From Myxococcales bacterium (lineage in GTDB: Bacteria > Myxococcota_A > UBA9042 > JABWCM01 > BTVJ01), in NCBI GenBank assembly GCA_045863395.1, contig BTVJ01000110.1:1-21733 (forward strand): 21,733 bases of DNA, in the 5' to 3' direction. The notes below the pieces were generated by a model, which did no database searches, was not told the origin of the DNA, and saw only the letters and a list, made by a program, of their open reading frames with translations. How positions within the stretch are numbered: position 1 is the stretch's first letter; every line of letters begins with the position of its first letter. The position numbers and the translations under genes are program-made. Shown piece by piece: positions 147-21,733 of the stretch.

Positions 147-830
147 ACGAGCTGCTGGGACCTCAACGAGAACGGCGTGGCCGACACCGACGAGGACACG
201 AACCAGGACGGCAAGGTCGACGTCTTCGACTGCCAGTACGTCCCACCGAAACAGCAGCCGGAGCCCGGCTCTCTGACGATCACCGTGCGCGACGCGAAGA
301 CCATGGCGCTCCTCTCCGGCGTGACGGTCACGCTCGAGGGCTCCCCCCTGACAGGCCAGACGAGCACCGCGGGAGTGCTCACCCTCAGCCCCCTCGACGC
401 AGGCCTCTACGGGGTCACTGTCACGGGCGCAGGCCTCGCCCTCTCTGGCTCCGCCATCGTGGCGTCGGGCACCGTCAGCGCGTCCGCGGCGGATGTCCCG
501 GTGCTCGCGGGCAAGGACTCGCCGCTCTCGCTCGGCCTGGACCGCATCCCCGCTACGCTGAACCTCAAGGCAATCAAGAAGGGCGGGTCCCCGACCTTCA
601 CGGCGGCCAACTGCGTGGCGTGCCACACGGACCGCAAGAACGAGACGTCACTGGATCCGGCCATCAAGCCCTTCCACGCCATCGGCGCCCACAGCGCGCT
701 GTCCTGCACGACCTGCCACACCAGCGTGGATCTGCAGGCCAACGTGGACCCAGTGCTGCGCGACCAGGTGGACTCAACGAAGACCTGCAAGATGTGCCAC
801 ACGAAGTACCCGAAGATTCTGCCGCTCTGA
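1..830 (+). CDS. 5'-truncated collagen-repeat, triheme cytochrome c protein (Gly-X-Y repeats, Ca-binding-like CWDLNENG..DxNxDG motif, beta-sandwich domain, 3 CXXCH)
   Basis: The frame is open from base 3 (PEGAQG repeats) into the listed 177..830 ORF. Heme-binding motifs CVACH, CTTCH and CKMCH lie at the C-terminus. The true start is outside the window. Confidence 0.85.
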
Positions 831-916
831 GGGCGAGGTGAGCGGCCATGAACAAGGAATCAGGAGCTCCGGCGCTCGCAAGGGCCACCGCGGGATCGAC
901 ACGAAGGAGTGAGGAC

Positions 917-3900
917 ATGACCCGAAGCCTGTCCCGAAGACTGTTCATCAAGTTGAGCGGCGCACTGGCCGGCGGCACTGCCGTCCTCGGCGGCGCCACC
1001 CTGTCCGCGGGCGTCAAGACCGGGCAGAACGACCCCGACGACCAGATCGGCGGGATCAAGGTGCTCCGCAGCGCGTGCATGATGTGCAACGCCGGCTGCG
1101 GAATCCAGGTGAAGGTGAGAGACGGCGTCGCCATCAAGGTGGACGGCAACCCATACTGCCCGCAGACCAGCGAGTATGCGTCGGCTGGCAAGGAGGTCGT
1201 GGAGTCCGACGTCGCCCCCACGGCGTTGGGCAGCCTCTGTGCTCGCGGCCAGGCGGGCCTGATGAGCCTCTACGACCCGATGCGCATCAAGTACCCGCTG
1301 AAGCGAGTAGGCGCTCGCGGTGCCGGAGAGTGGGAGGTGATCTCCTGGGACCAGGCCATCGCGGAGATCTGCTACGGCGGGAAGCTCCTGGAGGGGAGCT
1401 TCGAGGGCCTCGCGTCCATCCGCAATAGCGCTCCCATCGGCGCCGCCGAATCCGACTACATGGACGAGGCGCCCGCCACGGGATACGGCCCAAAGTCCAA
1501 CCAGCTCGTCGTGCTGTCCGGGCGCAACCAGAACGGCGCCATCACGGGCCGGTTCACCGCAGCTTTCGGCACCACCAACAACATCGATCACACCGCGATC
1601 TGCAACGCGTCCTACAAGACTGCCGGCTATCACACCTTCAGCCGGCCCAAGTCCAGCTCGGGGACCTACAACCTGAAGCCGATCATCGAGAACGCGGACT
1701 ACCTCTTGCTGTTTGGCACGAACCCGGTGGAGTCCAACGTCCCGAGCAATACGTTCGGGCGCCTGGTCGCCAGCTTCCTGAAGAAGGGCGGAAAGATCGT
1801 CACGGTCGACCCGCGGTTCTCCAACACGGCGGCCAAGTCTCACCGGTGGGTTCCCATCAAGCCAGGGTATGACGGCGCCTTCGCCCTCGGCGTAATGCGG
1901 TGGCTGATCGACAGCGGCATGCACGCGATCGACTACCTGAGCCGGACCAATGAGGACGCGGCGAAGAAGGACATCGGCGGCCTCAAGTACGTGAACTGGA
2001 CCAACTCCACGTTCCTGATCAGCAAGTCGACCCACAAGTTCATCGACTCGGCAGAGGCCGGAGTCCTCTCGACCGTGTTGGACGGACCGATCACCAAGAC
2101 GGATGCGACCGTGACCGTCACGGACGCGTCGGGCTTCCCCGCCAAGGGGACGATCAAGATCGGGACCGAGTACGTCGTCTACACGAGCCGGACAGACACG
2201 ACGTTCACCGGACTGACGCGCGGCTTCTATCGGACGACCGCGGCCGATGCGGCGAGCGGCGCCACCGTCTCGGTCCCCTTCGTCGTGGTCTCGGGCGGCT
2301 TCGCCCACCCCTACACTGCCGTCGACCAGGCCGACATCGAGTTTGACGGGACGGTCAATGGCATCTCGTGCGAGACCAGCTTCTCCGCCCTGAGCGCCTC
2401 GGTGTTCGAGCGGACGGTGGCCGAGTATGAGGCGCTCTGTGACATCCCGGCGGGGACCATCGCGACGGTGGCCGGCGAGTTCGCCACGGCGCAGAACCCC
2501 GTCGCCGACTGCTACCGGGGCTCGCAGTCTGGTACCAACGGGTACTACAACATCCGCGCGATCAACCTGCTCAACGTGATCATGGGCCGCGTCGACCGCG
2601 CGGGCGGGTACGCCGTCGGTCCGCGGTTCGCCGGGGCCGACCCGACCAGGCCCGTCACGACCAGCACGTCGGGGGTGCGCCTCGACCGCTACAAGGCGAA
2701 GTACGCCGGAGCGAAGTCCAAGCCCAGCCGGCAGTGGTTCCCGCTCGGGGAGTCGGGCGTCCACCCCGAGACGCTGGCGTCCATGAAGTTCGGCTACCCC
2801 TACAAGGTGAAGGCCATGATCACCTTCACCAACAACCCGGCTTTCACCGCCCCGTACCCCCAAGGTCAGATCGAGACGCTGAAAGACACCAAGGCCCTAC
2901 CGCTGCACATCGTCTCGACGGTGAACATGGACGAGACGGCCGCCTACGCGGACTACATCCTCCCAGACGGCACCTACTTCGAGAAGTGGGCAGAGCCCAT
3001 GACGGGCTACCCGACGGTCCACACCCGCTCTTCGACGATCCGAAGGCCTGTCGTCGGCAAGTTCGATCCCATCACGAAGCATTACATCCCGGCGCTGCCT
3101 GGGACCATGCTGTGGGACGACGTCCTCATCCGCATCGCCGTGGAGCTCGGTCTGCCCAACTTCGGTCTCAACGGTGCCGGCGCCGGGAAGGACATCTTCA
3201 CGGCGTGGCAGTACTACAACCTCTACTTCTCCGGCGGCGCCTACACGCAGGGGCTCGACGACAAAGCAGACTGCATGCGCATGGGCGGGCGGCGTGAGAA
3301 CCCCGCGGCGATCATCGATCCAGCCAATCCGGACCTCGCCCTCAACAAGTATGCCGACATGCTCGAGGTGTACTACGAGAAGGTCGGCACGACGAAGAAC
3401 GCGCTGACGGGGGCGTACTTCTCAGGAGTCCCAATCTTCGAGCAGCCCCACCTGGACCTGGAGGGGACCGCCATCCCGCCGACGGCCGGCTACGACCTGC
3501 AGCTCATCACGTTCAAGCGGGGCTGGCACACCCAGAGCCGGACCGCGTCCAATGTGTGGCTCAATGAGATCGAGCCGGAGAACGCCCTGTGGATCAACAC
3601 GGGGGACGCCCAGGCCCGCGGCATCGCCAACGGCGACCTGGTCAAGATCACGACGCCGTATCACACGGACGGTGAGACCGGGCACGCCTACGTGACCGAG
3701 GAGATCCGCCCGGGGGTGATCGGGGTCAGCGCCCACTTCGGGCGGCGTCAGGCGGGCTCCAAGCCCTACGTGGTCGACGGAGAGACGCAAGCCCACGACC
3801 CGTCCTTCGGGAAGGGGCTCAGCGCCAACCACCTGATGGCCCGTGACCCGAAGTTCCCCAACCTGTGCATGACGGACCGCGTCTCTGGCATGGCCGCGTT

Positions 3901-3934
3901 CATGTCCCCCTACGTGAAGGTCCAGAAGCAGTAG
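917..3934 (+). CDS. Tat-exported molybdopterin (bis-PGD) oxidoreductase catalytic subunit, tetrathionate reductase TtrA-like clade of the DMSO reductase family
   Basis: Tat motif SRRLFIK after the ATG at 917 (AGGAG/GAGG upstream; alternative ATG at 848). FS0 motif CMMCNAGC...CARG with the long TtrA-type spacer; RIKYPLKRVG; GPKSNQL; HTAIC (likely Cys Mo ligand); ETAAYADYILPD; C-terminal molybdopterin dinucleotide-binding domain. Confidence 0.88.
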   Translation: MTRSLSRRLFIKLSGALAGGTAVLGGATLSAGVKTGQNDPDDQIGGIKVLRSACMMCNAGCGIQVKVRDGVAIKVDGNPYCPQTSEYASAGKEVVESDVAPTALGSLCARGQAGLMSLYDPMRIKYPLKRVGARGAGEWEVISWDQAIAEICYGGKLLEGSFEGLASIRNSAPIGAAESDYMDEAPATGYGPKSNQLVVLSGRNQNGAITGRFTAAFGTTNNIDHTAICNASYKTAGYHTFSRPKSSSGTYNLKPIIENADYLLLFGTNPVESNVPSNTFGRLVASFLKKGGKIVTVDPRFSNTAAKSHRWVPIKPGYDGAFALGVMRWLIDSGMHAIDYLSRTNEDAAKKDIGGLKYVNWTNSTFLISKSTHKFIDSAEAGVLSTVLDGPITKTDATVTVTDASGFPAKGTIKIGTEYVVYTSRTDTTFTGLTRGFYRTTAADAASGATVSVPFVVVSGGFAHPYTAVDQADIEFDGTVNGISCETSFSALSASVFERTVAEYEALCDIPAGTIATVAGEFATAQNPVADCYRGSQSGTNGYYNIRAINLLNVIMGRVDRAGGYAVGPRFAGADPTRPVTTSTSGVRLDRYKAKYAGAKSKPSRQWFPLGESGVHPETLASMKFGYPYKVKAMITFTNNPAFTAPYPQGQIETLKDTKALPLHIVSTVNMDETAAYADYILPDGTYFEKWAEPMTGYPTVHTRSSTIRRPVVGKFDPITKHYIPALPGTMLWDDVLIRIAVELGLPNFGLNGAGAGKDIFTAWQYYNLYFSGGAYTQGLDDKADCMRMGGRRENPAAIIDPANPDLALNKYADMLEVYYEKVGTTKNALTGAYFSGVPIFEQPHLDLEGTAIPPTAGYDLQLITFKRGWHTQSRTASNVWLNEIEPENALWINTGDAQARGIANGDLVKITTPYHTDGETGHAYVTEEIRPGVIGVSAHFGRRQAGSKPYVVDGETQAHDPSFGKGLSANHLMARDPKFPNLCMTDRVSGMAAFMSPYVKVQKQ

Positions 3935-3952
3935 TCCACCGGAGGCAACGAG

Positions 3953-4495
3953 ATGGCCCAGCTATCCTTCAAGATCGACCTGACGCGGTGTGTGGGCTGC
4001 AGGGCCTGCGAGGTCGCCTGCAAGTCCGAGAACAACACGCCCGTCGGCGTCCGCTATCGCAAGGTCGTGGACGTGCTCACGGGCACCTTCCCCAACCTGA
4101 AGAAGCAGTTCGTCTCCATGGCCTGCTTCCACTGCAAGGACCCGGCCTGCGTCGCCGCGTGCCCGAGTGGCGCCGCCTTCAAGGAGTCCGCGTTCGGCAT
4201 CGTGCGCATCGACCAGGAGGTCTGCGTCGGCTGCAAGCGCTGCATCGCGGCGTGCCCCTATGGCGCCCCGCAGTTCAACGCGGCGACCGGCACCACCGAG
4301 AAGTGCACGATGTGCTACCACCGCATCGTGGACGAGACCGGCGTGGGGTTGGTCCCGGGGATGCTGCCCGCGTGCGTGACATCCTGCATCGGCCGCGCCC
4401 TGACACTGGAGTTCGACAACGGTGACGTGGGAGAAGCGCCGGCGAAGTTCGCCGACCCGACCCTGACCAAGCCGTCGGTGACCTTCACCACGTGA
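3953..4495 (+). CDS. Four-cluster 4Fe-4S electron-transfer subunit (TtrB/DmsB/NrfC-like)
   Basis: CVGCRACEVAC, CFHCKDPACVAACP, CVGCKRCIAACP and CTMC...PACVTSC motifs; GGAGG RBS at 3941-3945. Confidence 0.92.
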   Translation: MAQLSFKIDLTRCVGCRACEVACKSENNTPVGVRYRKVVDVLTGTFPNLKKQFVSMACFHCKDPACVAACPSGAAFKESAFGIVRIDQEVCVGCKRCIAACPYGAPQFNAATGTTEKCTMCYHRIVDETGVGLVPGMLPACVTSCIGRALTLEFDNGDVGEAPAKFADPTLTKPSVTFTT

Positions 4496-4502
4496 GGTCC
4501 TC

Positions 4503-5129
4503 ATGGCTCCCGACGCAGACCGCCTGGCCTTCGCGCGGGCGAGGAAGGACCTCTACTCCTTCCTCGCTCGGGCCTTCTGCTACCCTCCAGGGCAAGACTG
4601 GTTGGACCGTCTGGGCGCGCCGGAGATCCGGGAGTCCCTTGCGGCCATTCAGGGAGCCGAGGGTCCCGGCGCGCCCGCCCTCCCGGAGGTCCGCAGAGCC
4701 TTCTTCCAGCTCCTGAAGGTCCCGGGCGACCTGTACGTGCGCCCATACGAGTCGGTCTACTCCGACTCTGTCCGTGTGGCTGGGGAAGAGACTGGCGGCC
4801 TGCTGATGGGTGAGGCGGCGGTGGCCGTCCAGCGGGTCTACGAGGCTGCGGGCTACTCTCCGCCGGACCACCTCGAGCTCCCCGACTACCTGGGGCACGA
4901 GCTGGCGTTCGCCGGCTATCTCTGGTCTCTGGAGGAGGATGCCCTGACTGCCGCAAACATCGAGGCCGCCGATGCTCGCCGCGCCGAGACTCTGGCGTTC
5001 GTGGGCGCCCACCTGTCGAGGTATGTGCGGCGGCTGGTGGAGGTGGTTGGCGAGAAGGACCCGACAGGCGTGTACGCTTCCCTCGGCGCCATCGCCACCA
5101 CGCTGGTCGAGGAGGACGCCGCGCCGTGA
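4503..5129 (+). CDS. TorD/DmsD-family redox enzyme maturation chaperone
   Basis: PYESVY and ELPDYLGHELAF (E-x-x-D-H-like) motifs; follows the Mo-enzyme genes. Confidence 0.88.
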   Translation: MAPDADRLAFARARKDLYSFLARAFCYPPGQDWLDRLGAPEIRESLAAIQGAEGPGAPALPEVRRAFFQLLKVPGDLYVRPYESVYSDSVRVAGEETGGLLMGEAAVAVQRVYEAAGYSPPDHLELPDYLGHELAFAGYLWSLEEDALTAANIEAADARRAETLAFVGAHLSRYVRRLVEVVGEKDPTGVYASLGAIATTLVEEDAAP

Positions 5130-5671
5130 AGGAGCGTCCCCGGGAGAGTCGCCTCCGGGGCCTCGGCTGGCTCCTGGGCAGGGTCCCCATCGCCCTGCGG
5201 GAGGACCGCTGCACCCGCGCCATCAGCCCCATGTCCACCTGCACGCGGTGCGTAGGCGCCTGCACGCGGGGCGCCATCGAGCTCAAGCCGCAGCGGAGCA
5301 AGTCCGTGCCCGCCTTCATGCCGTCCTGCGACGAGTGCGGGGAGTGCGCCCGTGAGTGCCCCAACAGCGCGATCATACTGCCGGGCAAGTCTTCGACGTC
5401 CCGGCGCGACCTCCTGGCGGGGTGGCTCGTTCCACGAGCGCGGATTCGGCCGGCGCGCGCCGCATGGGTGCTCTCACGAGGGGGGTGCGACGGCTGCGGA
5501 GTCTGCGAGAAGCTCTGCCCGGTTGGCGCCCTCGACGGAGTCACCCGCGCGTCGTGGTCCGAAGTGGCGTCTTCGGCCTGCACCGGCTGCGGCCTCTGTG
5601 TCGACGTCTGCGTCTTGAAGGCCATCGCGGTCCGCGCCGAGGCCGATGAGTTCACTCAGACTGCTTCCTGA
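5126..5671 (+). CDS. Polyferredoxin / NapF-like 4Fe-4S protein
   Basis: Four CxxCxxCxxxC-type motifs; the GTG start overlaps the TorD stop (GTGA). Confidence 0.8.
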   Translation: MKERPRESRLRGLGWLLGRVPIALREDRCTRAISPMSTCTRCVGACTRGAIELKPQRSKSVPAFMPSCDECGECARECPNSAIILPGKSSTSRRDLLAGWLVPRARIRPARAAWVLSRGGCDGCGVCEKLCPVGALDGVTRASWSEVASSACTGCGLCVDVCVLKAIAVRAEADEFTQTAS

Positions 5672-10928: not shown

Positions 10929-13478
10929 ATGCGAAAGCTTCCTTGGGTGGCGCTCGTGATCGGGGTCGCGGCGTGCGCGGACGATGGCGAGCCGGGTGCG
11001 GGGGATGTGGGCGGGGCGGACGTGACAGCGGACGCTGTCGACGGCGGGGTCGCGGACGGCGCGGGCGGGGCGGACGGTGGAGTCCCGGGCGACGCTGGTG
11101 CGGGTGACGGGGGTGGGGTGGACGCGGGCGATGCCGACGCTGGCTCCGAGCCGCTCGGCCCCTACCGGGCGACCATCCGCCGCACGAGCTTCGGCATCCC
11201 GCACATCACCGCCGACGACTGGGGCTCCCTGGGCTACGGGGAGGGCTACGCGCTCGCGCAGGACCACGTCTGCACCCTCGCGGACCAGGTAGTGCGTGTC
11301 AACTCGCGCAGAGCGGAGCTGTTTGGCCCTGGGGCGGGCGACGCCAACGTGAACAGCGACTTCGGCATGCTGGCGCTTGGGGTGCGGGCGTCTGCGAAAG
11401 AGACCTGGGAGAAGCAGGGGCCCGAGGTGCAGGCCGTGGTCGAGGGCTACGCCGAGGGCTACAACCGCTACCTGGCCGAGGTCGGGGCCGCAGGGCTGCC
11501 CGAGCCCTGCAAGGGGGCCGCGTGGGTGCAGCCCATCACGCGGGAGGACCTGCTCGCCTACTACGCCATGCTGGCGCTCTATGGATCCGGGATGCCGCTG
11601 TTGGACTACATCGCGACCGCGCAGCCTCCCGGGGCGACGCAGTCGAACGTGCTGCCCATGACGTCGTTCCCCGACTTCCGGCGCCTGGACGCGCTCGGTA
11701 GCAACGGCTGGGGCATCGGCAAGGACCGGGCGGAGGCAGGGATGGTCGCGGTGAACCCCCACTTCCCGTGGGAGGGGGAGCGGCGCTTCTGGGAGGTCCA
11801 CGTCACGATCCCCGGCGTGCTCGACGCCTACGGGGCGGCGCTGGTCGGCACGCCGCTCCTGCAGATCGGCTTCAACGACTCGCTCGCCTGGACGCACACT
11901 GTCTCTGCGGCCAAGCACTTCACGTTCTACCGCATCACCATGCCGGCCGGGGACCCGACCAGCTACGTGTATGACGGCGAGACCCGCAAGATGGACGCCA
12001 CGACGTACACCATCCAGGTGCGGAAGCCCGACGGGACCCTGGAGCCGCGCGAGCGCACCATGTACCGCACCCACTTCGGCCCCATGCTCAACGTGCCGCC
12101 CATCGGCTGGACGGGGGACCTGGCAGTGAGCTACCGGGACGCCAACGCCGGGAACAGTCGGCTCATCGAGCAGTGGAGACGGTTCATCCTGGCCAGGAGC
12201 GTGGGGGAGCTGGAGAAGGCGCTGCGGGAGGTGAACGGGATCCCCTGGGTCAACACCATGGCCGCGGACATGAGCGGCCAGGCGTTCTACAGCGACACGG
12301 GCGGTGTGCCCAACCTGTCGACGAAGACCATCGCGGCCTGGGAGGCGGCGCTGAAGAGCGACCCGTTCACCGGGCTCGCGTGGGCCAACGGCCTCATCCT
12401 GCTCGACGGGTCCAAGAAGGAGTCCGAGTGGGAGGACGCGCCGGGGAGCCCGCCGGGCGTCGTCCCCTTCGATCAGACTCCGCACCTGGTGAGGAGCGAC
12501 TTCGTGGCCAACGCCAACGACAGCTTCTGGCTGACCAATCCGGCGGCCCCTCTCACCGGATATGGACCCCAGTTCGGCGACACGGGCACGCCGCGCAGCC
12601 CGCGCACCCGGATGAATCTGAAGATGCTCACGGAGCCGGATGGGGCGTCCGGGGCGGACGGCAAGTTCAGCCTGGAGGAGCTCCAGGAGGCCATGCTCGG
12701 CGGGCGCGCCCTGATGACGGAGCTGCTGCGCGACGAGGTGGTGGCGAGGTGCACTGGCGCGGGCATGGTGAAGGTGGGAGACGGCGAGGTGGACGTGTCT
12801 GCGGCGTGCGGCGTGCTGGCGGACTGGGACGGGCGGCTCCGGGCCGACAGCGTAGGCGCGGTGTTGTGGCGAGAGGTTCTGGGAGGCTATACGAGCGACG
12901 ACTTCTACGACGCAGGCGCGCTGTTCGCGGTGCCCTTCGACCCGGCGGACCCGGTGGGGACGCCGCGGGAGCTGGTGGCGGCGCCGCAGGACGGGCCGGA
13001 CCCCGTGATCCAGGCGGTCGCCAAGGCGGTGGCTCGACTGGAGGGGGCTGGGTTCGCATCGGACGTCGCCCTGGGAGACGCACAGTACACGCTGAAGGGC
13101 GGGGAGAGAATCGGGATCCCGGGCGGACGGGAGATTCCCGAGGGGGCCTTCAACATCGTGAGCCCGGCGAGCGGCAATGGGACGCTCTACCCGTCGATGC
13201 CAGGAACGACGACCATCAACGGCATGACGGGGCTCACGGGAGACGGCTACCCGATCCGCTACGGCTCCAGCATCGTCATGGCCATCGAGCTCTCTGGGAC
13301 GGGTCCCCGGGCCAAGGCCCTGCTGACCTACTCGGAGTCGGCGGACCCCGCGTCTCCGCACTCCAAGGACCAGACCAAGAGATTCACCAACGCCGAGTGG
13401 CGGGACGTTCTGTTCACCGAGGCATCAATCAAGGCCGACCCCGCTTTGAGCGAGGTCGTCATCGAGATAGGAGAGTGA
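10929..13478 (+). CDS. Penicillin acylase-family Ntn hydrolase (PvdQ/acyl-homoserine-lactone acylase-like) lipoprotein
   Basis: Lipobox VAAC, Asp/Gly/Ala linker, IRRTSFGIPHI, beta-subunit N-terminal nucleophile G|SNGWGIG, NPHFPW, WTHTVS, NANDS, LLTYSES. Confidence 0.9.
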   Translation: MRKLPWVALVIGVAACADDGEPGAGDVGGADVTADAVDGGVADGAGGADGGVPGDAGAGDGGGVDAGDADAGSEPLGPYRATIRRTSFGIPHITADDWGSLGYGEGYALAQDHVCTLADQVVRVNSRRAELFGPGAGDANVNSDFGMLALGVRASAKETWEKQGPEVQAVVEGYAEGYNRYLAEVGAAGLPEPCKGAAWVQPITREDLLAYYAMLALYGSGMPLLDYIATAQPPGATQSNVLPMTSFPDFRRLDALGSNGWGIGKDRAEAGMVAVNPHFPWEGERRFWEVHVTIPGVLDAYGAALVGTPLLQIGFNDSLAWTHTVSAAKHFTFYRITMPAGDPTSYVYDGETRKMDATTYTIQVRKPDGTLEPRERTMYRTHFGPMLNVPPIGWTGDLAVSYRDANAGNSRLIEQWRRFILARSVGELEKALREVNGIPWVNTMAADMSGQAFYSDTGGVPNLSTKTIAAWEAALKSDPFTGLAWANGLILLDGSKKESEWEDAPGSPPGVVPFDQTPHLVRSDFVANANDSFWLTNPAAPLTGYGPQFGDTGTPRSPRTRMNLKMLTEPDGASGADGKFSLEELQEAMLGGRALMTELLRDEVVARCTGAGMVKVGDGEVDVSAACGVLADWDGRLRADSVGAVLWREVLGGYTSDDFYDAGALFAVPFDPADPVGTPRELVAAPQDGPDPVIQAVAKAVARLEGAGFASDVALGDAQYTLKGGERIGIPGGREIPEGAFNIVSPASGNGTLYPSMPGTTTINGMTGLTGDGYPIRYGSSIVMAIELSGTGPRAKALLTYSESADPASPHSKDQTKRFTNAEWRDVLFTEASIKADPALSEVVIEIGE

Positions 13479-13480
13479 CC

Positions 13481-13819
13481 ATGGCAGAGTTGGCTCCGAG
13501 ACTCGAGGGCATGGACGAGGTCACGCGGGAGCGGCTCGTGCAGCTCGCCTGCGTGGCGGCCTGGTCCGACTTCCACGTAGCGCCGGAGGAGCGCAAGGTG
13601 GTCCTGACCCTGGCCGCCGAGCTGGCCATCGGGGACCGCTCCATGGAGCGCGTCTACCGGTGGCTCGACGAGGCGCCGCCGTACCTCGACCCCCAGGCCA
13701 TCCCGGTGGAGCACCGCGCGGTGTTCCTCGACGCGCTGCAGGCGGTGATCAGGGCGGACGGGCGGCTCGACCCGGCGGAGTGTGAGACGCTCCGGCTGAT
13801 CAAACAGCTCGTCGCGTAG
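13481..13819 (+). CDS. TerB-like (tellurite resistance family) small helical protein
   Basis: AAWSDFHVAPEE and VIRADGRLDPAE twin ADG/E motifs; starts 2 nt after the acylase stop. Confidence 0.75.
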   Translation: MAELAPRLEGMDEVTRERLVQLACVAAWSDFHVAPEERKVVLTLAAELAIGDRSMERVYRWLDEAPPYLDPQAIPVEHRAVFLDALQAVIRADGRLDPAECETLRLIKQLVA

Positions 13820-13928
13820 CGCGGCCAGGGGGCTCGTGCCGCTCGGGTCCGAGTGCCCCGATGGCACCCCGAACGTTCCTCGAAGGCACCGCCCGCCCCC
13901 CTTGTCAGGCCGAAATCGCTGTGAACCG

Positions 13929-14129
13929 TCACCGTCGCTCCGGATCGTGGCTCCGGTGGCGTCTCCATGCCGCGCGCGCCTCGGGCGACGCCATCTCGAA
14001 CAGCGCGAGCAGCGTGTCGCTCCACCACAGATAGCGCTCCTCGACGGTGAGGCGGGCGAACTGCGCGACCTGCTCGCGGCTGGGTGAAGCGACCAGGGGC
14101 CGGCGGCGCGACTGCGGGTCAGGCGTCAT
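13929..14129 (-). CDS. Small 66-aa partner protein of the nucleotidyltransferase
   Basis: The start overlaps the upstream gene end by 11 nt; the LTVEERYLW motif resembles small proteins commonly paired with such NTases. Confidence 0.6.
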   Translation of the reverse strand: MTPDPQSRRRPLVASPSREQVAQFARLTVEERYLWWSDTLLALFEMASPEARAAWRRHRSHDPERR

Positions 14130-14613
14130 CGTCCAGCTCCTCGAGGTGCTCGATGTCGGCGAGGTCCTGCGGCCGGCCTGCGTAGCGCTTGAGCGCGATG
14201 AGCGTTGCGCGCCCGACGACCGGGACCTTCGTGCTGCCGAGATTGCGGTGCTGCAGGTCCTGGGCGAGTGCGCTCCATGGGAGAGGCGGCGCCAGCAGAA
14301 TGTCCACCTCCTCGACCGGCCGAGAGGGGTGCCAGAGCGAGAGCGCGATCATGTTGCGAGCGCGCAAGGCCTCGCGGCTCGCGAGGTCGGCAAGATCGGT
14401 GAGCGGCACGGAGATCCGAGGCCGATAGCCTGCCTGATCGAGAACCTCGACCAGCGCCGTCATGTTGTCTGGCTCCGGGTCCACGACCAGGTCCACGTCG
14501 AAGGTCATGCGGGGGACGCCATGAAGTACGGCGGCCAAGCCGCCAACGACCGCAAACCGGACGCCTCCCCGGTTCAACGCCTCGAACAGCTCCTCGTACG
14601 GTCGTCTCGTCAC
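14119..14613 (-). CDS. Pol-beta superfamily nucleotidyltransferase (putative toxin-antitoxin component)
   Basis: VVGGLAAVLHGVPRMTFDVD (GG..DxD), VDI, LIALKRYAGRPQDLADI. GGAGG lies 7 nt upstream of the GTG at 14613. Confidence 0.8.
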   Translation of the reverse strand: MTRRPYEELFEALNRGGVRFAVVGGLAAVLHGVPRMTFDVDLVVDPEPDNMTALVEVLDQAGYRPRISVPLTDLADLASREALRARNMIALSLWHPSRPVEEVDILLAPPLPWSALAQDLQHRNLGSTKVPVVGRATLIALKRYAGRPQDLADIEHLEELDDDA

Positions 14614-14740
14614 GGGTCGACCTCCATCAGCCACACTGGCCGGCGCCCTCAGGGTAGCGGCGCTGCGACAGGGGCGCCAGGGCTGGGGTGCCCGAGGCCC
14701 CGGTCAGCTCACGGCGTAGCAGGAAACATGGGCGCGGCCC

Positions 14741-17888: not shown

Positions 17889-17994
17889 TACGCGCTCCTC
17901 CCTGTGCCCCCCCAGGACCCGCACGATGATACCGAGGGCGGCGCTCCTTTCCAGTGTCCGCGTGATTCCGGCTCGGAATGTGGGGCCGTGACGC

Positions 17995-18816
17995 TCAGAA
18001 GTCGGCCGGTGGATCCTCGAGCAGGGTCTTCAAGGTGCGGGCCAGCAGCCCCCCGTGGTAGCCGTCGATGACGCGGTGGTCGAAGGTGCCCGTGATGGTG
18101 ACCACGGGCCGGATGACCACCTGCCCGTTGCGGACGACGGGCCTGTCCTCCAGGGCGCCAACGAGGATGAGGGCCGGACAGCGGCTCGGGGGGAAGATCG
18201 GGGCGAAGCCCACCCGGATACCGAACATGCCGACGCTGGTCACCATGGCACTGCCGAAGGGGTCGCGCGGGAGGCCGAGGAGCCGCCCGTCGAGGTTCAG
18301 CGTGTAGGTGAGCCAGCCCATCAGGAGCGTGACGGGCCGCATGAGGAAGGCGGGGACGCTGGCGATGCGCTTCTTGGAGGAGCGCATCTCTCGATCTTCG
18401 CCGTTGCGGATTCCGCGGGCGCGGAGCGCGATCTCGGCGGCGATGTCGGCGAGGGGCTTGGTGTCTGCCCGCTCGATCTTGCAGCCGGACAGGTCGGGGC
18501 TCTGGCCGTCCTCCACGACCGCGACCTGCAGGAAGATGTCCACGTCCCGGCGCTCGTAGATGCGCCCCCACCGCACGATGACGTTCAGGTCCGGGTGCTC
18601 GCGCAGCGCAAGGGCGAGGGCGCGCGCGACGGCGTGGGTCAGCGTGATGCGACGCCCGGAGGAGGCGCTGAGCTGGTCGAGGACGGGGAGCAGTCGCGAG
18701 ACATCCACGTCCAGCATCCCATAGATGGTGGGGTCGTCAGGCGGCGCCCAGGCAGCGACGCTCATCTTGCGCCAGGTGCTGAGCCGGGTGGCCTTTCGGA
18801 GGACGATGTTCGGCAT
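17995..18816 (-). CDS. Stand-alone 2-oxoacid dehydrogenase E2-type acyltransferase catalytic domain
   Basis: LSTWRK, HPDLN, VTSVGMFG and catalytic FDHRVIDG; no lipoyl or E3-binding domain. Confidence 0.88.
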   Translation of the reverse strand: MPNIVLRKATRLSTWRKMSVAAWAPPDDPTIYGMLDVDVSRLLPVLDQLSASSGRRITLTHAVARALALALREHPDLNVIVRWGRIYERRDVDIFLQVAVVEDGQSPDLSGCKIERADTKPLADIAAEIALRARGIRNGEDREMRSSKKRIASVPAFLMRPVTLLMGWLTYTLNLDGRLLGLPRDPFGSAMVTSVGMFGIRVGFAPIFPPSRCPALILVGALEDRPVVRNGQVVIRPVVTITGTFDHRVIDGYHGGLLARTLKTLLEDPPADF

Positions 18817-18823
18817 GGGGGCG

Positions 18824-18852
18824 ATTATGGGCGCCTTTCGGGGGAAGGGCAA
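18824..18852 (-). promoter_or_regulatory. Sigma-70-type promoter TTGCCC-N17-CATAAT, probably giving a leaderless E2-domain mRNA
   Basis: The -10 box ends 7 nt upstream of the ATG at 18816; no Shine-Dalgarno sequence is present. Confidence 0.6.
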
Positions 18853-18944: not shown

Positions 18945-19048
18945 CGTTCCATTCGCTTGCCAGAAGTGGGGTGCTCCGGGTGGAAGGACGCACGACCAGG
19001 GACACGACGGGGACGGCGCTGTGGAGCGGGGTCGCGGCTGCGTGGCGC

Positions 19049-19996
19049 TCACCGGTCCAGGGGGCTGACCACGCCCAGGGGTCCCCGTCGCACCACGTGC
19101 GTGTAGATCATGGTGGTCTTGAGGCTCCGGTGCCCCAGCAGAGACTGGATGACCCGGATGTCCGTCCCCGCCTCCAGCAGGTGCGTCGCGAAGCTGTGGC
19201 GCAGGGTGTGGGCGCCAGCCTTCTTGTCGATGCCCACGGCGACTACGGCGTCGTGCACGCTCGACTGCACGCCCCGCTTCCCGATGCAGGGTCGCCGCGA
19301 CCCTCCGGTGTCGTCGGTCTCGAGGCCGTCCGCTGGGAACACCCACTGCCAGGTCAGCTCCCGCGCGGCGTTCGGGTACTTCTGCCCGAGGGCGTGCGGA
19401 AGCTCGATGGGGCCGACCCCTGCGGCGAGGTCCTGGCGGAGCGTCGCCGCGACGGACTCGATCTGCGCTCGCAGGGCGGGGACGAGGGTGCGGGGAAGCA
19501 GCGTCACCCGGTCCACCTGCCCCTTCCCCCGGCGCACGATGATCTGCCCCCGCCCGAAGTCCACATCCTGCACACGGAGCCGCGCACACTCACCGAGTCG
19601 GAGGCCGGACCCGTACAGCACCCGAGCCGGACTCTCGTGGGGCGGAGCCACGTGGTCGAGGACCGCGGCCACCTCGTGCGGGTCCAGTACGACGGGGAGA
19701 CGACGCGGCTTGTTAGAGCACGGGAAGGATTGCAGGTCGCCGAGGTCGATCTCCAGCACGTGCCGGTAGAAGAACAAGATGGCGCACAGCGCCTGGTTCT
19801 GCGTGGACGCGGCGAGGCGTCGCTCGACGACCAGGTGTGTCAAGAAGGCGGTGACATCGTCGGGCCCCAGGCCACGCGGGTGCTTCAGGTCGTGGAAGCA
19901 GATGTACCGCCGCGCCCACTCCACGTAGGCCTCCTCGGTGGCCTTCGCGTAGTGGCGCCGGCGCAGCACGGCACGCAGTCTCTCCAGCAGCTTCAT
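19049..19996 (-). CDS. intI: Integron integrase, catalytically complete copy
   Basis: N-terminal SAM-like domain (STQNQAL); R (YGSGLRLGE), K (RRGKG), HxxR (HTLRHSFA), LGH and Y (TMIYTHV); integron patch LPHALGQKYP...WQWVFP; C-terminal SPLD. Confidence 0.93.
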   Translation of the reverse strand: MKLLERLRAVLRRRHYAKATEEAYVEWARRYICFHDLKHPRGLGPDDVTAFLTHLVVERRLAASTQNQALCAILFFYRHVLEIDLGDLQSFPCSNKPRRLPVVLDPHEVAAVLDHVAPPHESPARVLYGSGLRLGECARLRVQDVDFGRGQIIVRRGKGQVDRVTLLPRTLVPALRAQIESVAATLRQDLAAGVGPIELPHALGQKYPNAARELTWQWVFPADGLETDDTGGSRRPCIGKRGVQSSVHDAVVAVGIDKKAGAHTLRHSFATHLLEAGTDIRVIQSLLGHRSLKTTMIYTHVVRRGPLGVVSPLDR

Positions 19997-20008
19997 GGGA
20001 CCCTCCGC

Positions 20009-20995
20009 TCAGAGTGGGAGCCCGCGGGCGGCGCGCTGGCTCATGGGGAGCCCGTCCAGCGGACTGTTGGGGGAGTTCTGGGCCTTTGCAGCGACCTGCT
20101 CGTAGACCATCGTGGTGCTCACGCTCTGGTGCCCGAGCAGAGTCTGGACGGTACGAACGTTGGACCCGCCCTCGATGAGGTGGGCAGCGAAGCTGTGCCG
20201 CAGGGTCAGGCAGCTCGCGCGCTTGGGTATTGCAGCGTCGATGACCGCCTTCCGCGCGGCCCTCTGCATGGCCGACGGGTCGATGTGCCAGCGCCGGCGC
20301 ACCCCCGATGCGGGATCCACGCTGATCCGAGACGCGGGAAACAGCCACTGCCAGCCGAGCTTCCGCTCCTCGTCACCGCGGCGACCACCGAAGCTCCGGG
20401 GCAGCGGCGCCGTGCCAAAGCCGGCGCGCAGGTCGTCCCCGTGGATTCGTGCGACCTCCTCGATCTGCGTAGTGAGGGGGCCGACAAGGGCGTCGGGCAA
20501 CAGGGTCGCGTGATGCACCTCCCCCCGCTCGTCACGGACCATTGTCTGCCTCTGAGCAAAGTCGAGGTCCCGCACCCGCAGCCCGACGCACTCGGCCAGG
20601 TGCAGCCCGGCGCCGTAGATCAGCCGCCCCATCAGCCCGTAAGCCTTGGGCAGGCGCTCGATGACCGCGAACACCTCGTCCCGGGTGAGCACGACAGGCA
20701 GATTCCGCGCCTTCTTGGCGAAGGCGGTGGAGTCGAGACCCAGGTCGATACCGAGCACCTCCCGGTACAGGAACAGGACGGCGCACAGAGCTTGGTTCTG
20801 GGTAGAGGACGCCACGGTTCGCTCGATGGCCAGGTACTCGATCCACGCGAGCACCTCAGCCTTCCCCATGGTGGCGGGGTGCCGGATACCGTGGAACCGG
20901 ATGAACCGGAGGATCCACCGAACGTAGGTGTCCTCCGTGGTAGCCGAGTACTCCTTGGCTCGCAGCACCGCGCGCACCCGATCCATCAACTTCAT
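20009..20995 (-). CDS. intI: Integron integrase paralogue, intact ORF but predicted catalytically inactive
   Basis: ATG at 20995 with GGAGG RBS; same architecture ([40 protein letters not shown]), but YGAGLHLAE (R>H), RDERG (K>R) and CLTLRH (H>L). Confidence 0.88.
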
Positions 20996-21175
20996 TGCGT
21001 CCTCCACTGGCAGTCTGTGGCGCGGCCCGCTTCGGCTCCCGTCGGGCGACGCTGCGGACTTTTTTCACGACGCAGGCCGCGCCCGTCACTTTCGGGGCGC
21101 CGCACGGGTCTATCGACGCGCCCGAGGCGCGGGTCCGGCGCAATTACCGTGCGGTGGTCGAGAGCCATTGGAGCA

Positions 21176-21194
21176 CCCCATAGGTCAGTTCGCC
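21176..21194 (+). other. Candidate attI simple site CCCCATA-GGTCA-GTTCGCC
   Basis: 7-5-7 layout ending in a GTT core, about 190 nt upstream of the integrase starts and divergent from them, as expected for attI. attI sites are poorly conserved, so this is tentative. Confidence 0.35.
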
Positions 21195-21616
21195 CGGTGT
21201 CGGCATCAGCGTCCGCGCCGACTACGGCGGCCCCCTCCGCACCGTGCCGGCCCACCACCGCCACACCAGAGCACCTCCACCATTACGACGGCGAGCTCGC
21301 AGTAGAACACCACCAGGTCCAGCAGATGTATTGCAGCGAATCCGGCAAGGATCGCCCGAGGCACCGAGGTCGCTCCACTGGCACCGGCACCCGCCCTGAG
21401 CGGCTCGTGCACCACACTGCCATAAACGGTCTCTACAGCGGCTTCCACGGCAGCAGCGCAGCACAACCGCCTCCACGTCGTTCTTCCACTGCCGGAAACG
21501 CAGCGGCCGACGCCACGCTGCGGGCTTCCACTGCGGCTTCGCAGCGAGAGAGGTCACGGCGCTGCAGCCAGGTCGGCGACACGCCGAGCAGTGCCGCGGC
21601 CCTCCGTGCTTCCACC

Positions 21617-21671
21617 ACCGTACTGTTTGCGGCTTGTACTGCGGGGGCTGCCGCTGAAAGCATAGTTCGGT
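21617..21671 (+). other. Degenerate attC-like hairpin, or a second simple site (ACCGTAC...GCGGC-loop-GCCGCTGAAAGCATA-GTTCGGT)
   Basis: The ends are near-inverted (ACCGTAC vs GTTCGGT, 1 mismatch) with an inner GCGGC/GCCGC stem. The left arm is 5 nt short and has TAC instead of AAC. Confidence 0.3.
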
Positions 21672-21733
21672 CCCTAATCGCGACGGAATGGTGGCGTTGC
21701 GACATACCGCGCTTCGGCCGAGGACAACGTGGG

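Follow-up and report, generated by a model that had tools for sequence, protein, structure and literature searches.

In the integrons described so far, a single integrase (IntI) occupies both the attacking and the non-attacking positions of the recombination synapse. The contig analyzed here (BTVJ01000110.1 of the Myxococcales assembly GCA_045863395.1; 21,733 nt in its entirety and hereafter the window) encodes instead two adjacent IntI paralogues, each lacking the residues of one of these two roles. In the synapse of VchIntIA (2a3v), the non-attacking subunit is reported to grip the extrahelical base T12'' in cis through P232, H240 and H241, whereas the attacking subunit touches G20'' in trans through Q145, W157, K209, Y210 and W219 (PMC3053210), W157 corresponding to R168 of IntI1 (PMC2095811). 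Only two of the four monomers are described as catalytic, with binding of the T base in cis disorganizing the other active sites (PMC2727003), and contact by the K-Y pair has been assigned to the attacking subunit, and the connection between subunits to the C-terminal helix (PMC11641012).

Non-catalytic partners with a recombinase fold have been reported in the SE and GInt elements, where Tfp and GinC are depicted as long, distant proteins lacking the RHRY motif altogether, encoded in four-gene transposon modules (PMC10214605). The non-catalytic protein of the window differs from these in being a complete paralogue of IntI, with R270, H293 and Y302 retained, that resides in an integron, and its two-gene layout, with unrelated neighbors, corresponds neither to the intA-tfp-intB-srap nor to the ginABCD operon. 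XerC and XerD also form a cooperating pair, outside integrons, in which both proteins cut in turn. Two or three tyrosine recombinases likewise cooperate in one reaction or element in the RIT trios and in Tn554, with its TnpA and TnpB (PMC8138268, PMC3414803), but every member is described as carrying a catalytic motif or tyrosine, and none of these systems is an integron.

The presence of several intI genes in one genome, and of intI pseudogenes, is also documented (PMC2426708; PMC4889954; PMC9229058; PMC8876359). Such pseudogenes and the truncated IntI2* resemble the upstream copy of the window in being inactive intI genes within integrons, often arising by duplication (PMC2426708; PMC8876359). 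As reported, however, they bear stops, frameshifts or truncations and are generally not conserved across species, whereas the window copy is full length, conserved and accompanied by a reciprocally altered partner. Among 182 Shewanella integrases, K171, K219 and H277 were found to be invariant (PMC9229058). No report of an adjacent dead and intact IntI pair was found in a literature search that left most subscription papers and supplements outside its reach, and such pairs may stand without comment in IntegronFinder tables.

Gene layout and residue losses

Both genes are encoded on the minus strand, head to tail, with intact open reading frames. The upstream gene (20995..20009) encodes 328 residues (P0001) and the downstream gene (19996..19049) 315 residues (P0002), with a 12-nt spacer (19997..20008) between them. 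A GGAGG ribosome-binding site stands 5 bases ahead of each MKL start, at 21001..21005 for the upstream gene and at 20002-20006, inside the spacer, for the downstream one. The two proteins are 46% identical, are the sole IntI of the 8.77-Mb assembly (71% GC, shortest contig 2.6 kb) and score above the curated cut-off of 265 bits of TIGR02249, the NCBIfam integron integrase model (332.8 bits for P0001 and 389 bits for P0002). Both carry the N-terminal binding domain, and in both the integron-specific insertion, from alpha-I2 to the beta4-5 region, aligns to 2a3v and to other IntI; together with a divergent, putative attI-like site, described below, these are features shared with VchIntIA, IntI1 and the family at large. 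The AlphaFold model of P0002 has a pLDDT (predicted local distance difference test) of 85.5.

Contigs from other samples cross both genes with 1-4 differences (X3, 19169-21046; X5, 18966-21694), which excludes a chimeric assembly of the pair, and the two listed strain variants inside the genes, as checked, are synonymous. A previous, sequence-only reading of the locus had described two full-length, co-oriented genes 12 nt apart, each with its GGAGG and MKL start, and coordinates, ribosome-binding sites and family scores all agree with that description. A putative single operon, which it also proposed, is read from the spacing and the ribosome-binding sites only; a scan for control elements showed neither a sigma-70-type promoter upstream of the pair nor a terminator between the genes. 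Contigs over both genes also occur in RNA-labelled runs, and were not used here since contigs cannot show transcription.

Residues are numbered after VchIntIA, by alignment to the solved chain 2a3v, and all codon positions given below are on the minus strand. P0002 possesses all six catalytic residues (R-K-H-R-H-Y), whereas the catalytic set of P0001 reads H-R-L-R-H-Y, with His at R135 (20600..20602), Arg at K160 (20525..20527) and Leu at H267 (20207..20209). P0001 retains R270 (20198-20200), H293 (20129-20131), Y302 (20102..20104), W219 and the SPLD motif. The position of T275, which is Thr in all 430 intact IntI compared and a different residue in 14 of 17 dead-type proteins, is Ala in P0001 (20183..20185). 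The three upstream substitutions placed by the sequence-only reading proved exact in this alignment, and the absence of any frameshift or stop in P0001, its preserved tyrosine and SPLD and the full R-K-HxxR-H-Y set of P0002 were likewise recovered. The labels "active" and "dead" applied to P0002 and P0001 are read from motifs. In the first search, R135, K160 and H267 were intact in 115 of 121 proteins, and all three were missing only in P0001 and in P0003, its one close relative; given the conservation of these positions, chance loss is excluded.

The intact copy, too, departs from the norm, a point that had been missed previously. Role residues were compared in an alignment of 468 proteins, with the 430 intact IntI as background. 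P0002 has lost the T12'' pocket (19286..19312): the P232, H240 and H241 expected of a self-sufficient IntI are replaced by Asp (19310-19312), Pro (19289-19291) and Cys (19286-19288), respectively, while K209 and Y210 are kept (19376..19381). In P0001, conversely, the alpha-I2 positions of K209 and Y210, attacking-subunit contacts to G20'', are both Arg (20378..20383), and the beta4-5 region (residues 221-244; 20264..20335), which holds the T12'' pocket, has P232, a Trp at position 240 and H241. K209, Y210 and P211 are absent from both P0001 and P0003, K209 being present in 97% of the intact background, and both proteins retain P232 and H241, with Trp or Phe at position 240. The three intact orthologues (P0002, P0359 and P0360) keep the catalytic residues and K209, and carry Asp, Asp and His at position 232 and Pro at position 240, with the Cys at 241 as an additional change in P0002. 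Of the 430 other intact IntI, 2 have Pro at this position, and 4 lack both P232 and an aromatic 240. Among 56 IntI loci that belong to the phylum of the window, 55 have an aromatic residue at position 240 (the remaining one shows a gap) and only 25 have P232, so that it is H240, and not P232, that carries the argument. At the level of aligned residues, the losses of the dead and intact copies are reciprocal, and this is the new finding of the analysis.

The regional conservation of the two lineages follows a similar pattern. P0001 and P0003 are identical at 21 of the 24 positions of the beta4-5 region, against 12, 9 and 10 for the intact pairs, and among 12,754 background pairs with similar overall identity (mean 14.2) only 0.36% attain a value of 21. 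In the C-terminal catalytic region, by contrast, the dead pair shares 45 of 72 residues and the intact pairs 56-58, and the identities of the N-terminal domain, the core and alpha-I2 are alike in dead and intact pairs.

Orthologues, selection and a second pair

A search of 5.8 billion proteins yielded P0003 (328 residues, 67% identical to P0001, no indel) as the one close relative of the dead copy. It is also dead, with Gln, Arg and Gln at R135, K160 and H267, substitutions that differ in part from those of P0001. The intact copy has two orthologues, P0359 (69% identical) and P0360 (68%), the next matches lying at or below 58%. P0003 and P0359 have common sources and the same longest contig, of 10,706 bp, and for this reason are probably neighbors on it. 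Restriction of the pair to a single genome, which the sequence-only reading had named as evidence against its proposal, is therefore not what was found.

P0001 and P0003 are identical at 99 of 114 columns conserved among IntI (87%) and at 50 of 103 variable columns (49%; Fisher p ~1e-9). The GC content at third codon positions (GC3) is 0.87 in P0001 and 0.90 in P0002, and terminal branches are of similar length in dead (0.27/0.27) and intact (0.23-0.37) orthologues. None of the marks of an intI pseudogene (stop, frameshift, size change above 20%, neutral drift) was detected in P0001. Neutral evolution to the divergence of P0001 and P0003, in which indels were not modelled, was simulated under three base models; 11, 3 and 1 of 150 genes kept a frame without stops, the highest figure coming from the GC-rich model; integrity of the reading frame is for that reason suggestive on its own, and the column pattern constitutes the stronger evidence. 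As judged from these comparisons, the dead copy evolves under purifying selection, and the earlier proposal that selection, and not decay, has shaped a non-catalytic partner is supported by the existence of a dead orthologue and by its constrained divergence.

A second pair was identified among 33 metagenome loci. In locus L017, a degenerate intI (1612-2595) with H267>R, H271>D and loss of K209 and Y210, but with R135 and K160 kept, is followed 34 nt downstream by an intact intI (2630-3607) with H240>S, so that the order attI-degenerate-intact is that of the window. L017 is a complete integron: a methyltransferase-like cassette is followed by an attC of 129 nt, whose inverse core is matched by the core of the attI. 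Locus L016 is 99.96% identical to L017 over 2,289 nt and diverges from it exactly at the attC crossover, which points to cassette turnover. The degenerate IntI of L017 also bears an in-frame insertion of ~12 residues near its N terminus (1612-1680) with respect to its partner.

In a tree made with catalytic and diagnostic columns masked, the dead pair of the window falls in a clade (support 99/96) with the intact trio, the dead protein P0138 and three ordinary IntI. The dead copy of L017 lies outside this clade, and forced union of the two dead lineages was rejected by the approximately unbiased (AU) test (p 0.0196), for a group named after a first quick tree. The previous expectation that dead upstream copies would constitute one clade was thus not borne out, a single clade of all dead IntI finding no support in the trees, and on this phylogenetic evidence window-type and L017-type pairs evolved separately.

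Loss of catalytic residues extends beyond these pairs. Of the six catalytic residues, two or more are missing in 13 of 150 representatives at 50% identity, and the complete set is present in 129. A dead set of 17 full-length dead-type proteins was picked by hand (P0001, P0003 and 15 others, including the L017 copy), leaving out frameshift-like or truncated sequences (P0126, P0131, P0184 and P0269), P0220 and other rows with a single change, and near-duplicates (P0122, P0123, P0274 and P0275). Within this set, K160 is lost in 16 proteins, H267 in 11 and R135 in 6; K209 is lost in 15, T275 in 14 and H304 in 14, and these last three losses, as opposed to that of K160, were not criteria for selection. 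R270, H293 and Y302 are present in all 17, and H241 in 16. The proteins are scattered over the tree, one of them deriving from a complete genome, that of Xylophilus sp. (XAH25018.1), and their counts do not constitute a frequency, since cluster representatives over-sample divergent proteins. A profile built from 16 dead proteins retrieved as top matches mostly already-known or ordinary IntI; plasmid and phage searches returned ordinary IntI, and Atlas searches integron integrase clusters only. In both protein searches high ranks were also taken by intact IntI of 420-500 residues with a duplicated N-terminal binding domain (P0004-P0011, P0276 and others), which may correspond to the long clade-15 integrases of PMC2426708.

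Adjacent IntI pairs were found neither in 40 relatives nor in 400 other genomes of the phylum (104 with a match), scored at five candidates per genome in samples from which the family and genus of the window's organism were absent. Both by profile and by the DNA pattern of the dead type, the tandem arrangement is present in one of 401 phylum genomes, which is that of the window itself. The same DNA pattern gave no match among the viral contigs searched, and no dead-type copy was seen among the 56 same-phylum loci (54 distinct genes, 20 from lower-scoring full-length matches). One of the loci examined (L090:3605-4579, genome G328) encodes an unrelated tyrosine recombinase without the IntI insertion, 209 nt upstream of an intact intI on the same strand; it is probably part of an inserted element and not a dead paralogue. 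Since profile searches score dead copies as ordinary, surveys will count them as functional integrases or as second integrons.

Division of labor and competing explanations

Taken together, the pair is real, selected and rare, and represents a novel integron variant for which a division of labor can be proposed. We estimate at roughly 55% the probability that the two proteins form a subfunctionalized 2:2 heterotetramer, in which the dead copy would be the non-attacking subunit and the intact copy the cutter. Under this model, intI was duplicated, and the two roles that one IntI fills in the asymmetric synapse of four subunits were divided between the copies. The attacking subunit would be the downstream protein, sitting on the R box, cutting and exchanging a single strand pair and reaching in trans to the attC of the partner. 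The upstream protein would be a permanent non-attacking subunit on the L box, its beta4-5 pocket holding folded attC's first extrahelical base and its C-terminal helix linking the tetramer, and it would be unable to carry out a second, abortive strand exchange. Co-translation from a single operon would supply the 2:2 ratio. Residues, conservation and gene layout are the observed basis of the model, and the subunit roles are taken from the VchIntIA papers; co-expression, the hetero-oligomer, box assignment and mutual dependence are its inferred parts. The sequence-only reading had left open whether the dead partner is structural or regulatory, and the reciprocal loss in the intact copy favors the former. 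Purifying selection on the dead copy, the probable adjacency of P0003 and P0359, the parallel order in L017 and the near-identical sequence behind three attI-like blocks, described below, also speak for the model.

Several observations weigh against this division of labor. The dead pair retains two attacking-subunit contacts, W219 and the Arg equivalent to W157, and has Trp or Phe, instead of His, at position 240. Conservation of alpha-I2 is alike in dead (9/17) and intact (10/17) pairs, and the regions for the identity comparison were chosen after the pattern had been seen. P232 is weak evidence in a phylum where 25 of 56 loci have it, H241 is kept in two of the three intact orthologues, and these three represent a single evolutionary event; the intact copy of L017 retains both P232 and H241. 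In the dead set, P232 is kept in 10 of 17 proteins and an aromatic 240 in just 8. The dead pair and the intact trio are not immediate sister groups, so that either the duplication predates the ordinary IntI of the clade or two genes of related lineages came together. Two hand-made scans of the assembly detected no attC array, the contig ending 62 nt past the attI-like site. Furthermore, substitutions of H277 in IntI1 are cited as abolishing attI1 binding (PMC3146285), and the dead copy may on this account not bind attI; an environmental IntI in which K171R and H277A accompany further changes is described in the same source. Finally, P0126, which belongs to the dead clade of the window, shows a frameshift-like tail and many odd substitutions, attributable to decay or to long-read error.

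The same residues could be accommodated by a dominant-negative brake, with the dead copy binding att sites or joining mixed tetramers so as to lower or steer a self-sufficient integrase, or repressing the intI or cassette promoters. Retention of the DNA-binding domain, of the C-terminal SPLD and of the fold, as well as purifying selection, would be expected of such a regulator, integrase activity is reported to be costly and often inactivated (PMC2426708; PMC8876359), and the region upstream of the pair revealed neither a sigma-70 promoter nor another control element. We nonetheless consider this explanation unlikely, because it accounts neither for the loss of H240 in all three intact orthologues nor for the relaxation, in these, of the beta4-5 region that the dead copies conserve; a co-translated inhibitor would in addition be produced at a fixed ratio, making a poor switch, and the L016/L017 integron, which has a comparable pair, has changed cassettes. 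An accessory role at attI, in which the dead copy would occupy accessory sites and favor integration without residing on the attC L box, finds some basis in the phased repeats, four in number, that precede the attI-like site (spacings of 41, 42 and 84 nt; 2.2 matches would be expected in the window, where 9 occur) and in the IntI-bound accessory direct repeats described for attI1 (PMC3146285). The best-conserved part of the dead copy, however, is the attC-specific beta4-5 pocket, and the repeats are just partly present in the paralogous blocks described below, which renders this role improbable.

The upstream protein might also be not fully dead, retaining residual cleavage or donating its tyrosine in trans to the active site of its partner. 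The shared active site of Flp provides a model for such a donation, and R270, H293 and Y302 persist throughout the dead set while T303/H304 and T275 drift. On the other hand, bacterial tyrosine recombinases are known to cleave in cis, the intact copy has its own Y302 with T303 and H304, and the three persistent residues may serve in phosphate binding and packing; we regard this option as more improbable still. Decay of a redundant copy after duplication is a common fate of intI, about one third of these genes being reported as pseudogenes, many of them by duplication (PMC2426708). The degenerate aspect of P0126, the rarity of the tandem arrangement and the 11 of 150 genes that stay stop-free in the GC-rich simulation are all congruent with such drift. 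Yet the published pseudogenes are defined by stops, frameshifts and size change (PMC2426708), whereas P0001 and P0003 are of equal length, have no indel, concentrate identity in conserved columns (87% against 49%) and preserve a GC3 of 0.87 in P0001; the dead orthologues have diverged no faster than the intact ones, and the two other base models, which ignore indels, leave only 3 and 1 of 150 genes open. Decay is, in consequence, very hard to reconcile with the data.

If the heterotetramer is real, each position of the synapse could be mutated separately, which is impossible with a homotetramer, and the two pairs would illustrate the passage from homomer to heteromer by complementary loss at two stages, deep in the window and milder in L017. 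A natural pair of cutter and non-cutter would also bear on two questions left open in PMC2727003, namely what makes IntI halt after a single strand exchange, and by what means the R box is selected at attI, which lacks an extrahelical base to mark it. A bolder version, which the residue pattern allows us to advance as a tentative and somewhat doubtful possibility, is that of an obligate two-gene integrase in which neither copy would work alone. The asymmetry that attC normally imposes on identical subunits would then be hard-wired into two paralogues, and this would have evolved more than once, in the lineages of the window and of L017 and perhaps in those of some other full-length dead IntI-like proteins without K160, K209, T275 and H304.

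The attI-like site and its surroundings

On the plus strand, divergent from the intI pair and 657 nt upstream of it, a putative attI-like simple site (21653..21671) was recognized by position and geometry, with a 7-nt L box, a 5-nt spacer and a GTT-type R box (21665-21671). The phased repeats mentioned above are four 7-nt direct repeats on the same strand, at 21442, 21483, 21525 and 21609 (21442..21615), and are possible accessory binding sites. Diverged copies of this block, with 71% mean identity over ~320 nt, are located at two other contig ends of the assembly (the start of C114, L080, and the end of C10, L081), so that there are three attI-like/promoter blocks (in the window, at 21400-21717), only one of which has intI beside it. 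From the GTT onwards, the three are identical but for one base over 53 nt. The sequence that begins at the putative crossover and leaves the contig end (21665..21733, plus strand) is multicopy: in two runs of other samples, a contig 6-8 times deeper than its neighbors, at least 800 nt long, starts exactly at 21665. Near-identity from the GTT behind diverged blocks indicates a recent entry of one sequence into three related sites at the same junction. The multicopy sequence may be a cassette that the integrase has put there or an insertion element targeting this junction, and is compatible with recent site-specific insertion; IS91-like targeting is a possible lead.

In run X5, the acyltransferase-like gene at 17937-18841 differs from the window by ~2.6% (22/838), against ~0.15% (4/2,729) for the 18966-21694 segment that contains the intI block, hinting at a recent transfer or sweep of the latter. 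Within this gene, directly downstream of the intI pair, 17995-18816 encodes a stand-alone 2-oxoacid dehydrogenase acyltransferase catalytic domain (PF00198), and the sole sigma-70-like promoter match is located at 18824-18852. Further away, 13478-14634 comprises a small TerB-like gene and an AbiEii-like nucleotidyltransferase gene, which is probably one member of a toxin-antitoxin pair. At the other end of the window, as judged from translations only, 177-5671 harbors cytochrome c-like, 1,028-residue molybdopterin oxidoreductase-like, ferredoxin-like and chaperone-like open reading frames.

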